A stretch of DNA of 64,000 nucleotides, taken from positions 1 through 64,000 of the IMG/VR virus record IMGVR_UViG_3300034152_000419, one strand, 5' to 3'. The position numbers were made by a program, and so were the translations under genes. The notes beneath the pieces were generated by a model. That model saw only the letters and a list, made by a program, of their open reading frames with translations. It had not been told where the DNA came from and did not search any database. Positions 28,953-37,563 of the stretch are shown here, piece by piece; positions within the stretch are counted from its first letter, which is position 1; every line of letters begins with the position of its first letter. The stretch comes from a virus.

Positions 28953-29720
28953 TTACTTGATCGGGAGCAGTTCGTCAAGATCTGTCGCCTCCTCCCTGTG
29001 ATTCCGGGGGAGTTTTGCATCCGCATCGTGCTCAAGTTCGGGATATCTCCCCGCGAGGACCCCCTCCGGTTGAGCATAATCACTGACTCCCGCGAATGTG
29101 TCTGTCGCCAGTCTGACCGGATTCTTTTCCTCGATATCGGAGATCTCCTGAATTTTCTCAAGGCATCTGAGATCCTCTTTCGTGACCTTTTCAGTATCGA
29201 GTCCGAGTGCTCTCCTGTGTCTCTGCAAATGGTTTATGACCTCCTGAGATGCACGTTGACCGGATCTCGCGCCTTGAGCCGCCGCCCATGCCGCATTGAG
29301 TCCGCCTCGATGGAGATACATATCCCCGGACGAATAAACCCCCATGTCGTTGAGTTCCCCTCCGTTTCGGACCCAGTGATGGGGATAGGACCACGTCGAT
29401 TTTTTCTCCGGGTCCGTTCCGGGATCTTGCCACACAAACGCTCGATATGGGAGTTTCGTCTTGTCCACGGTTCCCCATCCCGGTTCACCGTCCTCGACGT
29501 TCGAGTTGTGGTTCAGTGCCTTTTCCCGGATCGGAGTGACGCTCGGTTTGTTGATCGGGAGGATTGCATCTATCGAATCCCATTTTGAGGCATCCGACCT
29601 GAATGTGTCATAGCAGATCGCGAGTGCCGTGTTTTGATCATATTCGTCCCCGATCTCCCCCATGCACCGGGAGACGAACTCACTTTCCGTTTCGCCTGAT
29701 CTCGGTTTCGGAATCGGCAT
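28953..29720 (-). CDS. head-associated hypothetical protein
   Basis: MPIPKP..GE....FVSRCM N-terminus; LP..AF...W.YPHH...A..HL..H domain of the kind seen on phage head proteins; start re-set. Confidence 0.6.
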   Translation of the reverse strand: MPIPKPRSGETESEFVSRCMGEIGDEYDQNTALAICYDTFRSDASKWDSIDAILPINKPSVTPIREKALNHNSNVEDGEPGWGTVDKTKLPYRAFVWQDPGTDPEKKSTWSYPHHWVRNGGELNDMGVYSSGDMYLHRGGLNAAWAAAQGARSGQRASQEVINHLQRHRRALGLDTEKVTKEDLRCLEKIQEISDIEEKNPVRLATDTFAGVSDYAQPEGVLAGRYPELEHDADAKLPRNHREEATDLDELLPIK

Positions 29721-29853
29721 TTTCTGTCCCTCCCTTTTCCGTCTTTTCGATGTCCTCTTTCGAGTAAACATCGGGCCAATCATCGAACTCACCGTCAAGA
29801 ACGACGACATCGCCTGTGTCGGGTTTTGAGTAATCAATATCAGTCGTTTTCAT
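29680..29853 (-). CDS. small acidic protein, 57 aa (not in ORF track)
   Basis: MKTTDIDYSKPDTGDVVVLDGEFDDWPD...; ATGA overlap with upstream stop. Confidence 0.5.
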   Translation of the reverse strand: MKTTDIDYSKPDTGDVVVLDGEFDDWPDVYSKEDIEKTEKGGTENADSETEIRRNGK

Positions 29854-30122
29854 TTTTCCTCTTTCACATCGCTCGCCCGGATCGACGACCCGGAGAACTC
29901 AAATTTGAGATTTTTCAAAAATAGCAGAGGATCGGATCCGTCGGGAAACATCTGACGGTTTGAGTTTTCCTCCACCTCTATGACACCGAATGTTTCCAGA
30001 GATTCGATTATATACTCATCGAGATCCTCTCCATATTTAATTTTTGATTTCTTTCCCTCCTCGTCAAGATAGATTCGACCGAGTGATTTATTATTTGAGT
30101 CTGTAAATTCAACATATCGCAT
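29850..30122 (-). CDS. small acidic protein, candidate MuF immunity protein
   Basis: 90 aa directly after MuF; AT-rich; GAGGAG RBS. Confidence 0.6.
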   Translation of the reverse strand: MRYVEFTDSNNKSLGRIYLDEEGKKSKIKYGEDLDEYIIESLETFGVIEVEENSNRQMFPDGSDPLLFLKNLKFEFSGSSIRASDVKEEK

Positions 30123-30140
30123 TTTCGATCTCTCCTCAAC

Positions 30141-33128
30141 TTAAAACATCATAAAATTCCATAACTCCTCCGCCGCTTTTCTGTTTCCCCATCCAGAATA
30201 ACCCCGGAAAAGATTGTGCATCCGACTTTGTTGAATTGCTCTGACAAGCAGATCCCGACGTCGTTCCATCGAAGTGACCTCCTCTGTCGAGAGACCATAT
30301 TTCCGACCGAGTTGCTCGACATCGAGTGCGTCGAGTCGTTTCATCAAAACCTCTCGTTTATGGATCGAGAGGATCGAATTAAAACCGGGGACCGTTGTGC
30401 TCGGTTGCATCGCCGCTCCGCACCGAAACTCTCGCATACCGAGCAGATCGTCGATCCCCTCCTGCGGAAAAGCATATCCGTTGTCGATGAGAATCATTTT
30501 GCCTTTGCCGCGACCCTCGACGACTCTCATCCAGTTTTTCCCGTGACGGTCCGTGTTGCCGATCAGGAAATCAAAAATCGTTGAATTATAGACATCCTCG
30601 TCTTTCAGATCGCGGAGAGGACTCGTCCGAAATTTTCTCGCGAACTCCGCCTCGGTGATTGCGTCCCCCCTGAAATATTGCAGAGATCCGGTTTTCCCAT
30701 TGATCTTGACGAGCCGTGTCTCCGGGACGAGATTCAATCCGAGATATCTGTCGATCTCCCATGCGAGAGCCTCCCTGTGTGCAAGGGGAGCATCCACATT
30801 CGTGATCGTTTTCCTGATATCGAACCTCTCTCCCTCAATCGGTTTAAACACTCCCTTTTGTCCATTCGGGAGAGTGACAATCTGTGTCTCGTTGACACCT
30901 CCGCCGAGACCGACGATTTTTTCCTTTTCTATTTTTCCGAGATCGATGACGAGTTCGCCGCGATTCGCAGTGAGTTGCTTTTTTGTCAGGAAAACTGATT
31001 TCCCATCATAGGGATCATTGAGTGAGACATACCAGTTTTTTCGTTCATATTTTAACCATTTGAGTTCATCGGAGACTCTCCTCCACACCTCATGATAATG
31101 GAGACGATTCGCCTCCGTGACCGTCATCTCACCTTTTTTCAATAACGCCTTGAACTCTGTCTCGACGTCGTCATAATGTTTTTTAAAAGATTTTTGCCAC
31201 GCATCATTGAGACGTTTTTTGCGAATGTCAGGATCATATTTGTTCAGAGTCTTGACAAATTTATCATCATAATCGACCCACATTTGATGACGGTATTGAC
31301 GACCGACCGCTCGAATCGTTCTCAATTCGTGAGTGACAAGAAACTTGACGTCCGCCGGAGAGAACGCATTGTTCGAGGGATGATTGTGCGTCAAGTGTTT
31401 CCCTGCAAATGTCTCATATTCTGAGCGAGTCCATTCGACACTGTGCTTTTTCCCACGTTTCTTGAGTAGGATCTCTCCTGCGTCATCATATACGACCCCA
31501 TATTCAAAATTGTGATCCGCGATTTCCTTTTCAATCTGCAAAAGTTTTTGTTCAAATTTTGAGACCGGAGCATGTGTCGTCGGTTGAATTTTCTCCGCCG
31601 GAGTGACTTTCGCCGGAGGTTTGACCCGACGTCTTTTTCCCGCGAGGATCTTGTCCAGTGCGGACCCGTCCGCCTGATATCCGAGTCTTGTCTCTTTGAA
31701 CCAGTGCCGCTCTAAAAATTTCACCTCTCGCAGTGACGCCGGGGATGCAACCCGCACATATCCGCCTTTGTCCTTTGCGAACTGTGCGAAATTCTCGATC
31801 ACCGTTGTGTCTTGTGCTCTGCCGAAATTATAGAATTTATTGACCGTGACCCCGGACTTGTGCTTGTTATACTGAGCGACACAGATATTGTCACCATGAC
31901 GGGAGACCGCGACGTTTGCTTTTTTGTCCCCCATCAATCTCCATGCCGCCTGACGGGTTTTGTCCCTGTGAGTGTCCCATCCCTGCATGTGTCGATCCCT
32001 GAACAAGAGTCTCTGTTCGGGGACCATCGGGATTTCATTGAACGACTCGAACGTGACATTCCCATCGAAACGAGTATGCAGGAGAACGACCTCACACCGA
32101 CATCGGGGATGGAATGGGGGGACGAGATCCAGATCACGGATCGCCTCCGGGGGGACGTTGTCGACATCGTCCATTCGGGGAAATTGCCACAGATCCCGGA
32201 TCGCCTGAACATTTCCCGCAGTGATCCCGTCATATTCCTGCATTTTGTTGATTGCCATTTCCGCAGAAAAACACCGACCATCGATCCGTTGACACACGGG
32301 ACAGGTTTTGCGGTCCCTCTCACTGATCACTTGATACTCTGAGACTGCATATCCCTGCATCATCGCGACCGCAGTTTTATTCCATGCACGAGCGACCTCG
32401 ACGTCGCCTGTGATGTCAAATTGTGCATGAGGGATCGAGGGGATATTATTGACCCGATTGATGAGTTCCGCACGATCAACCGCACGGACACCCTCTTTGA
32501 GTGTTGCCTGAGTTGCAAGTTCCGCGATTCGGGGATTGAGAACCTCGGATGGAAATCCGTTTATATAGTCCTGAATAAGGATCGGTTGTTGCAGAGAAAA
32601 CCACTGATCGAACTGTTCGCGGGAGACCTTTTCGACCTTGCCGACATCCGCTTGAATCTGATTCACCGTCGGTTCGTGACCACGTTCCGTTGTTGCCTCA
32701 ATGAACTCGCCGAACCGCTTGTCATAAAAAACTTGAGACCGATATTGCGTCTCAAGATAGATCTCCTCGACTTTGTCCTTGACGAGTTTCCAGTGACGAG
32801 CACCGAGAGACTCCGCGCCTTTGAGGATCTTATTCAACCGCTTGTTGTCAACCGTGACAGGATCAGCCTCAAGATCGAACGCATCGACGACCTCGTCCGT
32901 GTAATCCTCCCCTCCCGCCTCTTTCCATCCGTTGACGAGGACCCGAAACATGAGAGCCGCCTGAGGTCCCCACAGGATCAGATCTCCTGACGCCTTGAGG
33001 ACCTCCGCGATTGTTTCAAGGGGATTGATGAGTTTGAGGTTTCCTGTGTGAATCAAGAACGCCTGATCAAATGAGTCAAGATTCAGGACCTCAACCGGAT
33101 TCGGTTTTCTCCTCGACAGGTGACTCAT
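30141..33128 (-). CDS. MuF (SPP1 gp7-like) minor head protein with GNAT-like, JAB-like and PI3/4-kinase-like extensions
   Basis: D.KTCPVC..DG, PPFHPRCRC; THNHPS...FSPAD; GVFKP, REALA, NTDRH, IDNG.AFP; follows portal. Confidence 0.85.
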   Translation of the reverse strand: MSHLSRRKPNPVEVLNLDSFDQAFLIHTGNLKLINPLETIAEVLKASGDLILWGPQAALMFRVLVNGWKEAGGEDYTDEVVDAFDLEADPVTVDNKRLNKILKGAESLGARHWKLVKDKVEEIYLETQYRSQVFYDKRFGEFIEATTERGHEPTVNQIQADVGKVEKVSREQFDQWFSLQQPILIQDYINGFPSEVLNPRIAELATQATLKEGVRAVDRAELINRVNNIPSIPHAQFDITGDVEVARAWNKTAVAMMQGYAVSEYQVISERDRKTCPVCQRIDGRCFSAEMAINKMQEYDGITAGNVQAIRDLWQFPRMDDVDNVPPEAIRDLDLVPPFHPRCRCEVVLLHTRFDGNVTFESFNEIPMVPEQRLLFRDRHMQGWDTHRDKTRQAAWRLMGDKKANVAVSRHGDNICVAQYNKHKSGVTVNKFYNFGRAQDTTVIENFAQFAKDKGGYVRVASPASLREVKFLERHWFKETRLGYQADGSALDKILAGKRRRVKPPAKVTPAEKIQPTTHAPVSKFEQKLLQIEKEIADHNFEYGVVYDDAGEILLKKRGKKHSVEWTRSEYETFAGKHLTHNHPSNNAFSPADVKFLVTHELRTIRAVGRQYRHQMWVDYDDKFVKTLNKYDPDIRKKRLNDAWQKSFKKHYDDVETEFKALLKKGEMTVTEANRLHYHEVWRRVSDELKWLKYERKNWYVSLNDPYDGKSVFLTKKQLTANRGELVIDLGKIEKEKIVGLGGGVNETQIVTLPNGQKGVFKPIEGERFDIRKTITNVDAPLAHREALAWEIDRYLGLNLVPETRLVKINGKTGSLQYFRGDAITEAEFARKFRTSPLRDLKDEDVYNSTIFDFLIGNTDRHGKNWMRVVEGRGKGKMILIDNGYAFPQEGIDDLLGMREFRCGAAMQPSTTVPGFNSILSIHKREVLMKRLDALDVEQLGRKYGLSTEEVTSMERRRDLLVRAIQQSRMHNLFRGYSGWGNRKAAEELWNFMMF

Positions 33129-33142
33129 GACTCCCTCCGGGA

Positions 33143-34900
33143 TCAGACGTCGTGTTGACAGGTTTTCCCTGCCTTTTCAACCGCTCTGTCGAGTGCTCCC
33201 GTGTCGATTGCCGATTGAAAGTTTGTCAAGAATCGATAGAGAGAGACCTCATCGGGAGAGAACATATCCGACTTGAAAAACTTTTCTGTCATCGCCGGGA
33301 GCAGACGTTGACGGGGGACCGGGAGTTGTTTCGAGTTTTTCTCCGCAATTTCCCCAGTGACCAGAGGTTCGACCCCTGCGAGTTGACCCAGTTCGAGCAG
33401 TTTCATGACAATCGGGAGAGGATAGTTCGCCCACGACGCATCGAACTGACTCATCTCAAGTGCAAATGCCTTGTTTGCCATAGCAATCGCGTTATTGATC
33501 GAAAATGCTCCGATATCGGAGAACATCTTGACACCCTCGGAGATCTCCCCCGAACCGACAATCTGAGGACCTTTGCTTTTGTATTTCCATTGATCGATTT
33601 TCAGTTCCCGCTTGACGAGAGTATTGTTGACGTTCTCGTCGAACTCGGTCCTCTCTGGAATGAAAATCTGCTCCTCCGCGACCATCCTTGCCGCCGTCGC
33701 CGTCGCGTGAGTATATGTCTCGGACTGTCCGATATACAGATCCGGGAGTCTGTATCGGTGACGGACGTCGTCCTTTGCAGTGTTCAGATATCGGTCGAAC
33801 ATCATGTCCTCTTTCCGATATTCTGTCATGTTCTTGAGTTCCATTTTCGCCGAACCTTTTTCCTCGATTCCCAGTCCCTCGACCTGAGATTCAAGCAGAG
33901 CGATTCGGTTGAAATTTTCCTCACCCCTCATCGATCTCAGGATCGAATAAAGTTCATCGAGCGATTCGTCGTTCAGGACTCCGCCGGAGATCATGATCAG
34001 GAGGGGAGCAATCCCCTGATTTTTGAAAAGATCATAATTGACGAACTGAGAGGATCTGCGTCCCATGACCTGTAACACCGCACCGATCCACCGGGGGACC
34101 CCGTAAATTTCACCCCCGAATGACGTCTTGAAATACCAGACCTCCGATGCTTTATATCGAGTCTGTTCGACATAATCCCCGGAGCGATAGTCCATGATCC
34201 GGGGATCGCCGAACTCTTTAAAATATCGCAGTTTCGTTCCGTATTTCGAGATCTGAACGAACCTTTTGAATGTCTTTTTGATCTTGATTGTTGTCGGTTT
34301 CCCATTCCGCATCAATGTGACCTCGACCGGGACCGGATTTTCTTTCCGTGCCGAGACCCGCATATATTTGAACGGGAGATGATAAATGAGTTGAACCTCT
34401 CCGATCCGGTTTCGGATCACCTCGAATCCAGAATTTCCGAGGACCTCAAGATCCTCCCTTTGCTTTTTGCGGACCGTCATGAATGATTCGGTCTCGTTGA
34501 CCTGATCAAAAAAGTTCTCCGCCTTGATCCGTTGCGTCTGTGCGTCCGTCGTCTCCCGTTCCGTCGCATCGTCGCCGAGAAAATCCAGTCGATATCCGAA
34601 ACCATCCACATTCAGTTGCATCGCCTCGATGACTGCCTGTAAAATATCGGACTCCTCATAGATTGTATAAAGATTGACAAAATTGAACGGAGGTTTGAGG
34701 ATTCTCTCGGATTCATAGATCTCAACAAAAGGATCGGTCTCCTCGACATATCGACGATGGAGACCCTCATCGTCCTGTTTGAAAAGATCCCGGATCTTTT
34801 GCAGTTTGTATCGTCTCTCACTGATTCTCGATGTCCCTCCCTCCGAGGACTGACGACTCGCGAGATCAACGACTTTCCTTTGTTCGATGTCTTTTGCCAT
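33143..34900 (-). CDS. portal protein (PBSX/XkdE-like)
   Basis: LGN..FEVIRN..G, YGVPRW, F.N.G.....I..GG. Confidence 0.85.
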   Translation of the reverse strand: MAKDIEQRKVVDLASRQSSEGGTSRISERRYKLQKIRDLFKQDDEGLHRRYVEETDPFVEIYESERILKPPFNFVNLYTIYEESDILQAVIEAMQLNVDGFGYRLDFLGDDATERETTDAQTQRIKAENFFDQVNETESFMTVRKKQREDLEVLGNSGFEVIRNRIGEVQLIYHLPFKYMRVSARKENPVPVEVTLMRNGKPTTIKIKKTFKRFVQISKYGTKLRYFKEFGDPRIMDYRSGDYVEQTRYKASEVWYFKTSFGGEIYGVPRWIGAVLQVMGRRSSQFVNYDLFKNQGIAPLLIMISGGVLNDESLDELYSILRSMRGEENFNRIALLESQVEGLGIEEKGSAKMELKNMTEYRKEDMMFDRYLNTAKDDVRHRYRLPDLYIGQSETYTHATATAARMVAEEQIFIPERTEFDENVNNTLVKRELKIDQWKYKSKGPQIVGSGEISEGVKMFSDIGAFSINNAIAMANKAFALEMSQFDASWANYPLPIVMKLLELGQLAGVEPLVTGEIAEKNSKQLPVPRQRLLPAMTEKFFKSDMFSPDEVSLYRFLTNFQSAIDTGALDRAVEKAGKTCQHDV

Positions 34901-34911
34901 GTCGGACCTCC

Positions 34912-37563
34912 TCAGATTTTCAACTCCTCCATCTCAGCGAGATTCTGACCGATTTCAGCCTCGGCCTTGAGAGGGACGACCAGTTCAACCCCGAAATCCC
35001 TTTTCAGCGGGGGGTTTTCCATTTCGTTAATTATTGCTCCTGCATAGTCTGTCACTCGACTGCAATCCTTAATCAAAAAAACGAGAGAGTCGTGAATGAA
35101 CAGCACAGGGAAAAAATAATCAGGATCAAAAATTTCTTTTTTTCGCGACTCGTTAAGTGCAATCAGCACCGTGTCGGATGACGGACTTTGAATCGGATGA
35201 TTTATCGCTTGCCGCTCTGCCTCCCATCGGACACCCTTGTCGTTTGAGTGGATTTCGGGGAGATGACGCCGACGTCCGAACACTGATTCAACATAACCCT
35301 TTTGACGACAAAATTCAACGATTTCCTCGTGATATCGTTCGAGTCCCGGATATTTCCCGAAAAAGATATTGACCCAGTCCTCCGCTTGTTCATATTCAAG
35401 ATCGATCCCATACTCCTCTTTTGCATATCGGATGAAACCCGCGACTGTCATTCTGAACAGGAGACCGAAATTCACGGACTTTGCATCCCGTCGAGCTTTC
35501 CATTTTTCAAATTTGTCAAGTTCGTCAAAAGGTTTCGGGGAGAGAGACTTTGCAGTTTCCGTGTGAATGTCGAGCGAGGCATCCCGGAAAATTCGGATCA
35601 TGTTTCTGTCGAGTGAGACATGAGACGCCCATCTCAATTCAGATTGACTCTCATCGACCTCAAGCAACAACCATCCGGGGGGAGCAGATATCAGCCGCCG
35701 GATTTTCTTTGCCGACTTTGATCTCTTTGGATTGTTCATCATGTTCGGATCGGAGGATGCAATCCGACCCGTGACCGCGACCACGAGAGAAAACTTTGAA
35801 TGAATTTTCCCGTCGTGCCGGATGTGCTGGTCGAATCCGTTGAGATATCGACTCCACAGTGTATGTAATTCTTTAAACTCTCCGAACTCTGTGAGAAACC
35901 GCTCCGCATTTTTTGTGAGTCTGCCGTCGAGCAGTTCTTTTCGGACCGCTTTGTCTGCCGCCGGGAGTCCGCTTTTTGTTTTCTTGATCGACTTGAGCCG
36001 GAATCCCTGAGGATCAAAAAGAATATCCCGGACCAGTTCAGACCGAGTGAGGACAATCCCGTCCTTTTTATTCTTTGCGATGTTTTTCTTTCGGTGATCG
36101 TCGCGATGGAGAACTTTTTTCGGGACCGTCATGAGTGCTTTGCGTTGATGCTTGAGCATCTCAATTCGGACCTCCTCCGCGACCTCCGGGAGAGCCGCAC
36201 GATCAATCGGACACCCATTCGACTCAAGCATCATGAGTGATTTCAGAGTCGGCATAATAAACTTGACGAGATAGTTCACATATTTCGGGTTTTTCGCGAG
36301 TTCTTTTTTCAATCCCTGTGTGACCTGATATGTGACATCTGCGTCCTGTGCCGCATAATCTGTCCGCGACTCACGGGGGACGGACAACATATCCGCCTTG
36401 TCATATTTTTTCTCGAACTCAATATTGTATTCGTTTTTAATATTGCTATAAAATTTTTGCAGTTCGTCGAGTCTCGACATCTTGAACAGGTTTTCATCGA
36501 TCAAGTGTGACGCCGCTTGAGTATCGATGACCCATCCCTCTATTTTTGGGAGATATCCTCTCTCCCTCGCGAATGTCGTCTCAATGCAGTGAAAATCAAA
36601 TGACCCATTATGTGTATAAATGCGGATATTCTCATCCGCGAGCAGTGCCTCGATCTCATCGAGTTTCCGTTCAAAGTCCTCGACCCTTTTGACATAGACA
36701 TCGACGAGTTGTCTCTTTTTCTTTCCCGGAGGGATTCGATTCCACTTGAAAGTATAATCCCACGAATCCCCCGCTCCGACCTCCTCGAACAATACGAAAT
36801 CATATCCAGACCCCGACTTATCCGACAGGGAGAGCGAAATCATTATATAATTCGGATCAAGCCAGTCGAGACCCTGTCCCTCCGTGTCGAGAGCGACGGG
36901 TTTTTTCTGATCGATCAAAAACTGAATCGAGTCCACCTCCTGATAGTGTGTGACCCGACTGTCCTCCGGGGGAGTGTAATTATTCCGCATAAACCGCTTG
37001 ACGGTTTTGAGATCCTCCACGAGCAGAGGTTTGAGGGATCGGTTTCTGAGAATATATGCAGGATGGAAACAAGGCATCACATAACAGTCGAACTCTTTTG
37101 AGAACTCATATCGACCACGTGCCTTTGTGATTCCAGACTTTCGGAGGATCTGACGGAGTGCGAAATCCCCGGAGGCGATGATCAATTTCGGTTTGAGGAT
37201 CTCGATTGTCCTTGTCACATATTCCCGACAAAAACTCAGAGCAGAGGTGATCTCTTTCCCTGACATTTTGCTTTTGTCGATCCGACATCGGGCGGAGTTC
37301 ATGACGTAGAACCGAGAGAAAACGAGACCCGCCTCCTCCGCACATTCTTTGATCATGTCTCCCGCCGCACCGACAAACGGTTTCCCCTCGACCTCCTCGT
37401 TATATCCGGGAGATTCCCCGATGAAAACAACTTTCGCCTTTTTGTTTCCACCATAGGGGACCTCGATTTTCTTAAACAGAGGACACTCCCGGATTCGACA
37501 TTTTTTGCCGCCTGTGTCTTTTCGTTTCTGCTTGAATCTAATTTTTCGGACCTGTGATTTCAT
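34912..37563 (-). CDS. family A DNA polymerase with N-terminal family-4 uracil-DNA glycosylase domain
   Basis: GESPG..E...GKPFVGAAG, FHPAYILRN; exonuclease LDTE, YAAQDA; TGRIASSDPN, DESQSELR, AKSVNFG, IHDS. Confidence 0.92.
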   Translation of the reverse strand: MKSQVRKIRFKQKRKDTGGKKCRIRECPLFKKIEVPYGGNKKAKVVFIGESPGYNEEVEGKPFVGAAGDMIKECAEEAGLVFSRFYVMNSARCRIDKSKMSGKEITSALSFCREYVTRTIEILKPKLIIASGDFALRQILRKSGITKARGRYEFSKEFDCYVMPCFHPAYILRNRSLKPLLVEDLKTVKRFMRNNYTPPEDSRVTHYQEVDSIQFLIDQKKPVALDTEGQGLDWLDPNYIMISLSLSDKSGSGYDFVLFEEVGAGDSWDYTFKWNRIPPGKKKRQLVDVYVKRVEDFERKLDEIEALLADENIRIYTHNGSFDFHCIETTFARERGYLPKIEGWVIDTQAASHLIDENLFKMSRLDELQKFYSNIKNEYNIEFEKKYDKADMLSVPRESRTDYAAQDADVTYQVTQGLKKELAKNPKYVNYLVKFIMPTLKSLMMLESNGCPIDRAALPEVAEEVRIEMLKHQRKALMTVPKKVLHRDDHRKKNIAKNKKDGIVLTRSELVRDILFDPQGFRLKSIKKTKSGLPAADKAVRKELLDGRLTKNAERFLTEFGEFKELHTLWSRYLNGFDQHIRHDGKIHSKFSLVVAVTGRIASSDPNMMNNPKRSKSAKKIRRLISAPPGWLLLEVDESQSELRWASHVSLDRNMIRIFRDASLDIHTETAKSLSPKPFDELDKFEKWKARRDAKSVNFGLLFRMTVAGFIRYAKEEYGIDLEYEQAEDWVNIFFGKYPGLERYHEEIVEFCRQKGYVESVFGRRRHLPEIHSNDKGVRWEAERQAINHPIQSPSSDTVLIALNESRKKEIFDPDYFFPVLFIHDSLVFLIKDCSRVTDYAGAIINEMENPPLKRDFGVELVVPLKAEAEIGQNLAEMEELKI

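Follow-up and report, generated by a model that had tools for sequence, protein, structure and literature searches.

The subject of this report is a 995-residue phage protein in which a minor head protein of the MuF family is joined, in one polypeptide, to a GNAT-fold domain, a RadC-like JAB/MPN domain, and a PI3/PI4-kinase-superfamily kinase, and which we identify as a rare three-cargo example of the polyvalent virion proteins that have already been described. Its gene lies within a window of 64,000 nucleotides (nt), corresponding to positions 1 to 64,000 of IMGVR_UViG_3300034152_000419, a linear IMG/VR virus record of 76.8 kb that is estimated to be 74% complete, and occupies positions 30141-33128 on the minus strand as a single unbroken open reading frame (ORF) of 995 codons. 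Four homologous proteins, 91, 83, 58, and 36% identical, keep its full length and all four of its parts, so that the ORF is not a chance reading frame. In our view the protein is probably packaged into the virion and ejected together with the DNA, its enzymes acting on the host early, and a capsid-delivered effector for host takeover or anti-defence would be the most reasonable reading.

The MuF core comprises amino acids (aa) 1-362 (32043..33128, minus strand), carries a CPVC...HPRCRC motif, and is matched by both Pfam and PHROG profiles. Five PHROG families of minor head or head morphogenesis proteins match it with E values between 6e-8 and 2e-4, the best of them being a minor head protein family. 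The gene directly upstream (33143..34900, minus strand) encodes the portal protein, as indicated by PHROG phrog_12 (E 1.4e-30) and by a weak match to Pfam Phage_portal. Only 14 nt separate the portal stop codon from the ATG of the MuF fusion, which has GGAGGGAG just ahead of it. The MuF gene lies directly 3' of the portal gene not only in the window but also in nine related loci.

The kinase forms the C-terminal end of the protein (aa ~726-995; 30144..30953, minus strand) and was recognised by a Pfam match, an AlphaFold2 (AF2) model, and Foldseek comparisons. The Pfam family PI3_PI4_kinase (PF00454) matches it with 31.3 bits, over its cut-off of 27.1, and two further families stay under theirs, Fam20C (PF06702) with 24.4 against 26.8 bits and HipA_C (PF07804) with 18.3 against 30.5; to judge from these profile scores, the relationship to Fam20C and HipA_C is one at superfamily level only. 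A profile of the kinase family searched against the sequences of the Protein Data Bank (PDB) retrieved PI4K2A with an E value of 3.3e-16, Fam20 near 1e-12, and Vps34 near 1e-6. The AF2 model (pLDDT 85.7, pTM 0.87) gave the same picture in Foldseek, where human PI4K-II alpha (PI4K2A, 4hne) came first with an E value of 2.3e-10 and a TM score of 0.62, followed by PI4K-II beta, Fam20, Helicobacter pylori CtkA, and Vps34. All catalytic residues are in place: a glycine-rich loop LGGGVN, K762 (VFKP), E786 (REA), D860-R861-H862 (FDFLIGNTDRH), N865, and D882 (IDNGYAFP). The VFKP lysine, the alpha-C glutamate, the DRH..N loop, and the aspartate of ID(N/H)G are invariant in 58 kinase relatives.

With the PI4K2A/B, Fam20/CotH, and HipA/CtkA kinases the phage domain thus shares the fold, the glycine-rich loop, the VFKP lysine, the alpha-C glutamate, the GNxDRH..N loop, and an IDNG motif that replaces DFG. 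It differs from the PI4K2A/B, Fam20, and HipA/CtkA structures in that identity is only 13-25% and in being a domain of ~270 residues with a short helical C-lobe, and from PI4K-II and Fam20 in having neither the palmitoylation and membrane-binding inserts of the former nor the N-terminal region of the latter. Fam20, CotH, HipA, and CtkA are protein kinases, and for this reason we favour, by analogy, a protein as the likely substrate of the phage kinase.

The JAB/MPN domain (aa ~520-700; 31029..31571, minus strand) was recognised by its metal-site motif, by structure comparison with VIA-align, and by profile comparison with hhalign. Its metal site, formed by E533/E542, H581, H583, S590, and D593, is invariant across the family, and E, E, T-H-N-H-P, S, D, and R do not vary when the domain is aligned with 14 stand-alone relatives. 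In VIA-align the domain matched RadC with a Z value of 8.0, PfJAMM1 with 7.9, the CBASS protein Cap3 with 7.5, AfJAMM with 6.8, and Rpn11 with 6.5; these values are middling, yet every match is to one fold that covers the domain. Foldseek likewise retrieved RadC, at probability 1.0 and an E value of 6e-3. When the family was compared by hhalign with an alignment of RadC JAB domains taken from five bacterial genomes, the two paired with 93.3% probability (E 2.6e-7, 61 columns), lining up the glutamate, the HNHPS stretch, and the S..D pair. The JAB-family profile found no match among the PDB sequences, and the link to RadC and JAMM proteins comes from the structure comparisons and hhalign only.

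The resemblance to the RadC-like JAB domains (PF04002; PDB 2qlc) and to the JAMM deconjugases PfJAMM1, Cap3, and Rpn11 therefore lies in the fold and in the E...HNHPS...S..D metal site. The differences are that Pfam RadC (PF04002) does not match the 995-aa protein itself, although it does match the same motif in the family members P0017 (28.8 bits) and P0034; that the spacer from the HxH motif to the serine has 6 residues, one fewer than the usual 7 of the JAMM signature; and that the family has a helical extension of its own, of ~70 residues (aa ~623-688), with a conserved EAN..H.HEVW motif. On these sequence comparisons we regard the family as a sister family to RadC rather than as RadC proper.

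The first cargo domain (aa ~388-501; 31626..31967, minus strand) has a GNAT fold, which emerged from an AF2 model of aa 351-715 and its structural matches. Over the GNAT-fold part of this model pLDDT is 74-94, and VIA-align placed the mini-GNAT AcrVA5 first (Z 8.8, rmsd 2.5, 81 of 95 residues), followed by ~35 further GNAT acetyltransferases at Z 6-7.7 (model residues 39-146). The leads obtained with Foldseek and from ESM Atlas structures are also GNATs. AcrVA5 and the minimal GNATs are thus the top structural match, but identity to them is 11%, and the phage domain has no Pfam GNAT match and no recognisable acetyl-CoA loop; the similarity to AcrVA5 may come down to small size and a common fold.

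These results agree with what a sequence-only reading of the same DNA, which gave no strand, had proposed, and all motifs that it quoted are found in the 995-aa minus-strand translation. It had placed a MuF core up to about aa 350, and the boundary lies near aa 360, the core being encoded immediately behind the portal gene. A degenerate GNAT-like region, marked by VKFLERHWFKE (aa ~469-479), was a fair description of a domain with a GNAT fold and a degenerate cofactor loop. The JAB/MPN-like motif (THNHPS...FSPAD, aa 580-593) belongs to a JAB fold with an intact metal site, and for the kinase with intact motifs of PI4K-II/HipA/Fam20 type, PF00454 scores over its cut-off and PI4K2A is the best fold match, with Fam20C and HipA_C under theirs. 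In the per-domain AlphaFold and Foldseek comparison, the GNAT, JAB, and kinase parts adopt the folds that had been named.

We then asked how these modules are distributed among other proteins. A HMMER search with aa 351-995 against 1.84 billion representative proteins gave 3014 matches with E <= 1e-3 (629 of them with E <= 1e-10), spread over the kinase and JAB modules, and the four parts were mapped onto 154 proteins, namely the best 150 of the 3014 matches and four others. The exact order MuF-GNAT-JAB-kinase occurs in only five proteins, counting this one; among the 154, JAB and kinase are found together only in the four homologues that share the whole architecture, and these four are also the only relatives of the GNAT-fold sequence. 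In 90 of the 154 proteins no module other than the kinase was recognised, and in 34 none other than the JAB domain. The JAB family is also found as stand-alone proteins (160-240 aa), as sole MuF cargo, and in arrays, and tandem arrays of either module, with up to four copies, occur in proteins of 1200-3200 aa. Six metagenomic proteins with three or four tandem kinase or JAB copies stand out (P0008, P0046, and P0048 with 2900-3200 aa; P0017, P0065, and P0111 with 1200-1900 aa), and the arrays in these giant proteins look like diversified effector arrays.

The JAB and the kinase modules each belong to a large and conserved family, whose members are mostly borne on MuF or portal proteins, stand by themselves, or lie in tandem within giant proteins. 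Pfam scans of the relatives found PF00454 in all 58 kinase-bearing proteins, Phage_Mu_F in 27, and portal families in five. Among 29 JAB-bearing proteins, MuF was present in 13, and others combine the JAB domain with ADP-ribosyltransferase (ART), 2H phosphoesterase, ParB, DpdA, or DnaJ domains. In the BFVD database the JAB fold turns up again in proteins of uncultured phages that are named 'minor capsid proteins' and in 'RadC-like JAB' proteins of giant size. Two further MuF proteins, P0005 and P0006 (1202 and 1377 aa), end in the same kinase; P0006 has a Pfam ART domain, and both contain a stretch that is GNAT-like by eye and in which Pfam detects none. BLASTP of the GNAT-like domain against P0005 as a GNAT-bearing relative gave no similarity.

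Searched by tblastn in 50,697 deposited phage genomes, the full-length protein gave only two weak matches, both to the JAB module, and for its kinase part the only match was to Myxococcus phage Mx1, in a 'kinase' gene with 25% identity; no close cultured relative was found among these genomes. One of the two JAB matches is a stand-alone homologue with 26% identity, gp044 of Aphanizomenon phage vB_AphaS-CL131 (L002 5854-6534), annotated as hypothetical and situated in the structural region, between head-completion and tail genes of this cultured cyanophage; it could serve as a tractable model for the JAB family. An IMG/VR scan with the single protein gave no match. A scan of GTDB genomes yielded 47 loci, and every one of the 20 inspected has its ORF standing alone, with a length of 147-343 aa (mostly ~290 aa). 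In the one locus whose neighbourhood was scanned, a HipA-like kinase lies beside a Couple_hipA/HIRAN gene: in Lachnospiraceae bacterium M18-1 (L042 5128-7528) a stand-alone HipA_C kinase of 292 aa is followed by a gene combining Couple_hipA (HipA N-terminal) and HIRAN, and the pair is flanked by an AAA_21/AbiEii-like gene and a DEAD/MrfA-type helicase, an arrangement resembling a split HipA module among defence-like neighbours. We rejected the GTDB loci as members of the phage kinase family and regard them as superfamily relatives, and they give no clue to the host.

Proteins of this kind belong to a published class. Polyvalent proteins were defined as proteins of phages, plasmids, and conjugative elements that contain 2-15 disparate domains and are predicted to be injected together with DNA; MuF is among their packaging modules, and the cargo listed for them includes kinases, GNATs, and RadC-type JAB domains, with MuF fusions among the examples (Iyer, Burroughs, Anand, de Souza, Aravind 2017, PMC5512222). 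The phage polypeptide studied here, with MuF followed by a GNAT fold, a JAB domain, and a kinase, contains at least two disparate domains, and it resembles the polyvalent proteins (PMC5512222) in joining unrelated enzyme domains beside virion genes, in its MuF packaging module, in its kinase, GNAT, and RadC-type JAB types, and in having relatives with tandem arrays, ART, 2H, or ParB; it differs in an exact MuF-GNAT-JAB-kinase order known from only five proteins. The premise of the sequence-only reading that several cargo domains on one MuF protein are unusual does not hold, because proteins with 2-15 domains were described in 2017 and kinases, GNATs, and RadC domains are already listed for the published classes (PMC5512222). 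Seen as a feature of the genome, the protein falls within a class already published and does not represent a system of a new kind. Particular to it are the combination of three modules and the fact that neither the kinase nor the JAB module family has a studied member: our literature search found no characterised member of either family and no publication describing the fusion of a PI4K-like kinase with a minor head protein of a phage. Compared by description only, some traits also fit the 'C-lobe-less' kinase clade of Verrucomicrobia and Bacteroidetes (PMC5512222), namely a glutamine that is conserved in the final strand of the N-lobe (GSxQ) and an insert ahead of the second aspartate.

The cargo is exchanged on a conserved MuF core. 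Orthologues of aa 1-350 were found in ten loci (IMG/VR and one metagenome), with a portal gene product 47-55% identical directly upstream of MuF in nine, which are all those in which upstream sequence is present. The orthologous MuF gene products have 328, 337, 536, 576, 696, 697, 883, and 1417 aa, and their C-terminal domains vary from absent through unknown, weakly ATLF-type peptidase-like, and JAB plus ART to a weak kinase-like region plus DUF3626. Behind the MuF gene lies a conserved gene with no assigned function (28953..29837, minus strand), matched by tblastn in eight related loci and always 3' of MuF, which marks the end of the variable cargo region and which we call the MPIPKP gene. 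In locus L003, which has no cargo, it follows MuF directly, and where cargo is present the two are separated by one to three small, unrelated ORFs. In the window this variable position is occupied by an acidic 90-aa ORF (29850..30122, minus strand), which begins 18 nt downstream of the MuF stop codon and has its own GAGGAG Shine-Dalgarno sequence. Only two homologues of it were found, 97% and 79% identical and apparently located beside the closest MuF homologues, P0002 and P0003, and loci with other MuF cargo lack it and have different small ORFs. Its product has no Pfam or PHROG match and is a candidate cargo-specific partner, which could be an immunity protein, an inhibitor, or a chaperone.

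The last point bears on a different explanation, according to which the protein is a polymorphic toxin of the MuF type, whose C-terminal domains, above all its HipA/Fam20-like kinase, arrest growth and are directed against competing bacteria or superinfecting phages, with the 90-aa ORF conferring immunity in the producer. One of the listed routes by which polymorphic toxins are delivered is MuF (Zhang et al. 2012, PMC3482391); Apk2 and Bxa, both MuF fusions, are active as toxins, with immunity proteins proven for Apk2 (PMC10083569), and small ORFs follow 89% of 191 MuF toxins according to Jamet et al. 2017, as far as that work is cited in PMC10083569. The protein shares with these toxins, as they are portrayed in PMC3482391 and in that citation of Jamet et al., a conserved MuF N-terminus, swappable C-terminal enzymes, and small ORFs behind the gene. 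The variable small ORFs in front of the next conserved gene, the conservation of the 90-aa ORF beside the two closest relatives and its absence with other cargo, and the fact that HipA-type kinases are toxins of toxin-antitoxin systems and that the distant genome matches here are HipA-like, all speak for it. The known MuF toxins, however, usually carry one toxin domain and belong to temperate phages, in whose prophages they reside; this protein has three modules, and three enzymes facing one small ORF fit poorly with a logic of one toxin and one immunity protein. The record, moreover, has its own PolA, DnaB, primase, SSB, and UvsX-like genes, and the immunity role of the 90-aa ORF, with no family match in Pfam or PHROG, is putative. 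On balance we consider this explanation unlikely.

We return to the reading of a polyvalent virion protein whose cargo acts on the newly infected cell. The protein would be made late and packaged through its MuF core, a few copies being docked at the portal inside the capsid, as with proteins of the SPP1 gp7 type; gp7 of SPP1 binds the portal (PMC10083569). The three modules, attached to the MuF C-terminus by flexible linkers, would be expelled through portal and tail together with the DNA and would act on molecules of the host during the first minutes of the infection. Most likely the kinase would then phosphorylate host proteins, and the JAB domain might hydrolyse a peptide, isopeptide, or nucleic-acid substrate.

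A number of observations weigh against this reading. The Pfam family Phage_Mu_F (PF04233) matches aa 220-347 with 23.5 bits (E 1e-4), under its cut-off of 29.6; to judge from the sequence, the protein is a divergent member of the PF04233 MuF family and not a non-member. For this protein, we infer virion presence and entry into the cell only from the MuF fusion and the adjacency to the portal gene. The nearest solved kinases span lipid, protein, and sugar kinases, and the folds do not reveal the substrate. In the GNAT-like domain the canonical Q/RxxGxG/A loop between beta-4 and alpha-3, which binds the pyrophosphate of acetyl-CoA, is missing; this protein has FGRAQDTT at the site, its 36%-identical relative has FGGIHDGG, and the Pfam scan gave no GNAT match. 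This domain may be non-catalytic, and it may serve as an adaptor or be an atypical transferase. The portal-MuF pair lies between replication genes and outside any classical head module, because the upstream neighbour of the portal gene is a DNA polymerase A gene with fused UDG and 3'-5' exonuclease domains and genes for DnaB, primase, an SSB-like protein, a helicase, and a UvsX-like protein follow farther downstream of MuF; the portal-MuF arrangement of the window is also kept in relatives. Finally, the scans of GTDB and of the deposited phage genomes did not identify the host.

The loss of the canonical cofactor loop in the GNAT-like domain could be taken to mean that the whole extension is evolutionary baggage, a set of former enzyme domains that now serve as bulk or structural filler of the capsid. 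The existence of MuF orthologues of 328-337 aa in related phages, which carry no cargo and from which it follows that cargo is dispensable for assembly, would suit such a view. It is contradicted by the catalytic residues of the kinase and the JAB domain, which are all kept and are invariant in relatives down to ~25-36% identity, so that selection for activity is indicated, and we hold it to be very improbable.

It is also conceivable that the cargo works in the producer cell or within the capsid, for example if the JAB domain cut the fusion at its linkers in the course of maturation and the kinase phosphorylated phage proteins. The modules are indeed joined by low-confidence linkers rich in proline and lysine that a protease could reach, the Pfam and PHROG scans recognised no separate prohead protease next to the portal gene, and self-processing before or after packaging has been proposed for the peptidase domains of polyvalent proteins such as P1 DdrB (PMC5512222). 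But the closest sequence relatives of the JAB domain are RadC-type JAB domains, which are not known peptidases (PMC5512222), and self-release by the JAB domain has no support in the sequence because the linkers show neither a conserved Gly-Gly nor another obvious cleavage motif. Moreover, where a JAB domain occurs alone, as sole cargo, or in arrays of up to four, there is nothing to release, and because the family occurs in these settings it looks more like an effector than like a dedicated release protease. Action in the producer cell or in the capsid is thus, to our mind, improbable.

A more specific version of delivery into the host would make the protein a pre-loaded package of three anti-defence enzymes, in which the JAB domain strips ubiquitin-like marks of the Bil or CBASS Cap2 type and the kinase silences host translation or defence. 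We give this proposal a rather low probability. If it were true, each of the two module families would constitute a large class of enzymes with which phages counter defence.

Several observations on the surrounding genes and on the occurrence of the DNA are added here. The product of the ORF at 28953-29837 has no family match in the Pfam or PHROG scans. In related loci the MPIPKP gene product has 59-158 aa, against 294 aa for the window ORF, which starts with TTG; this start probably lies too far upstream, and the true start is likely the internal methionine of MPIPKPRSGE.... The product begins with MPIPKP(R/N)(S/P)GE..(D/K)F(I/V)SRC and has an acidic C-terminus ending in L(P/F)(I/V). The gene is conserved downstream of the MuF gene in the related loci (L003-L012), and in seven of these (L003, L004, L005, L008, L009, L010, and L012) it is followed by a conserved run of small genes encoding products of ~170-190 aa (FEYNGGV.KP...), ~130 aa (MSFW.K.G...), and ~63 aa, and across phages this run keeps a striking synteny with portal and MuF. 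A single 883-aa product is encoded by the DNA polymerase A gene (34912-37563, minus strand), and in it a UDG-superfamily domain at the N-terminus is combined with a 3'-5' exonuclease and PolA (Pfam E values 3e-23, 9e-14, and 2e-71, respectively). The G+C content is ~47% in the cargo-coding region at 30000-32000 and ~52% in the MuF core and the end of the portal gene (32000-33500), and the lower value of the cargo would fit a separate acquisition. Among sequencing runs, no RNA run was listed as carrying the sequence, and word shares of 0.07-0.09 in three soil-metagenome runs of one study are no evidence on habitat.

Cargo borne on MuF proteins is thought to be among the commonest routes by which phages bring ready-made enzymes into cells, and tests exist for only two types of such cargo, namely a (p)ppApp synthetase and an ADP-ribosyltransferase (PMC10083569). 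Because the JAB domain and the kinase are both present with intact active sites, the protein described here is a compact test case, in which module-by-module mutation within one gene could separate the contributions of its parts and could show whether eukaryote-like kinases of the PI4K-II/Fam20 type act as protein kinases when phages infect.

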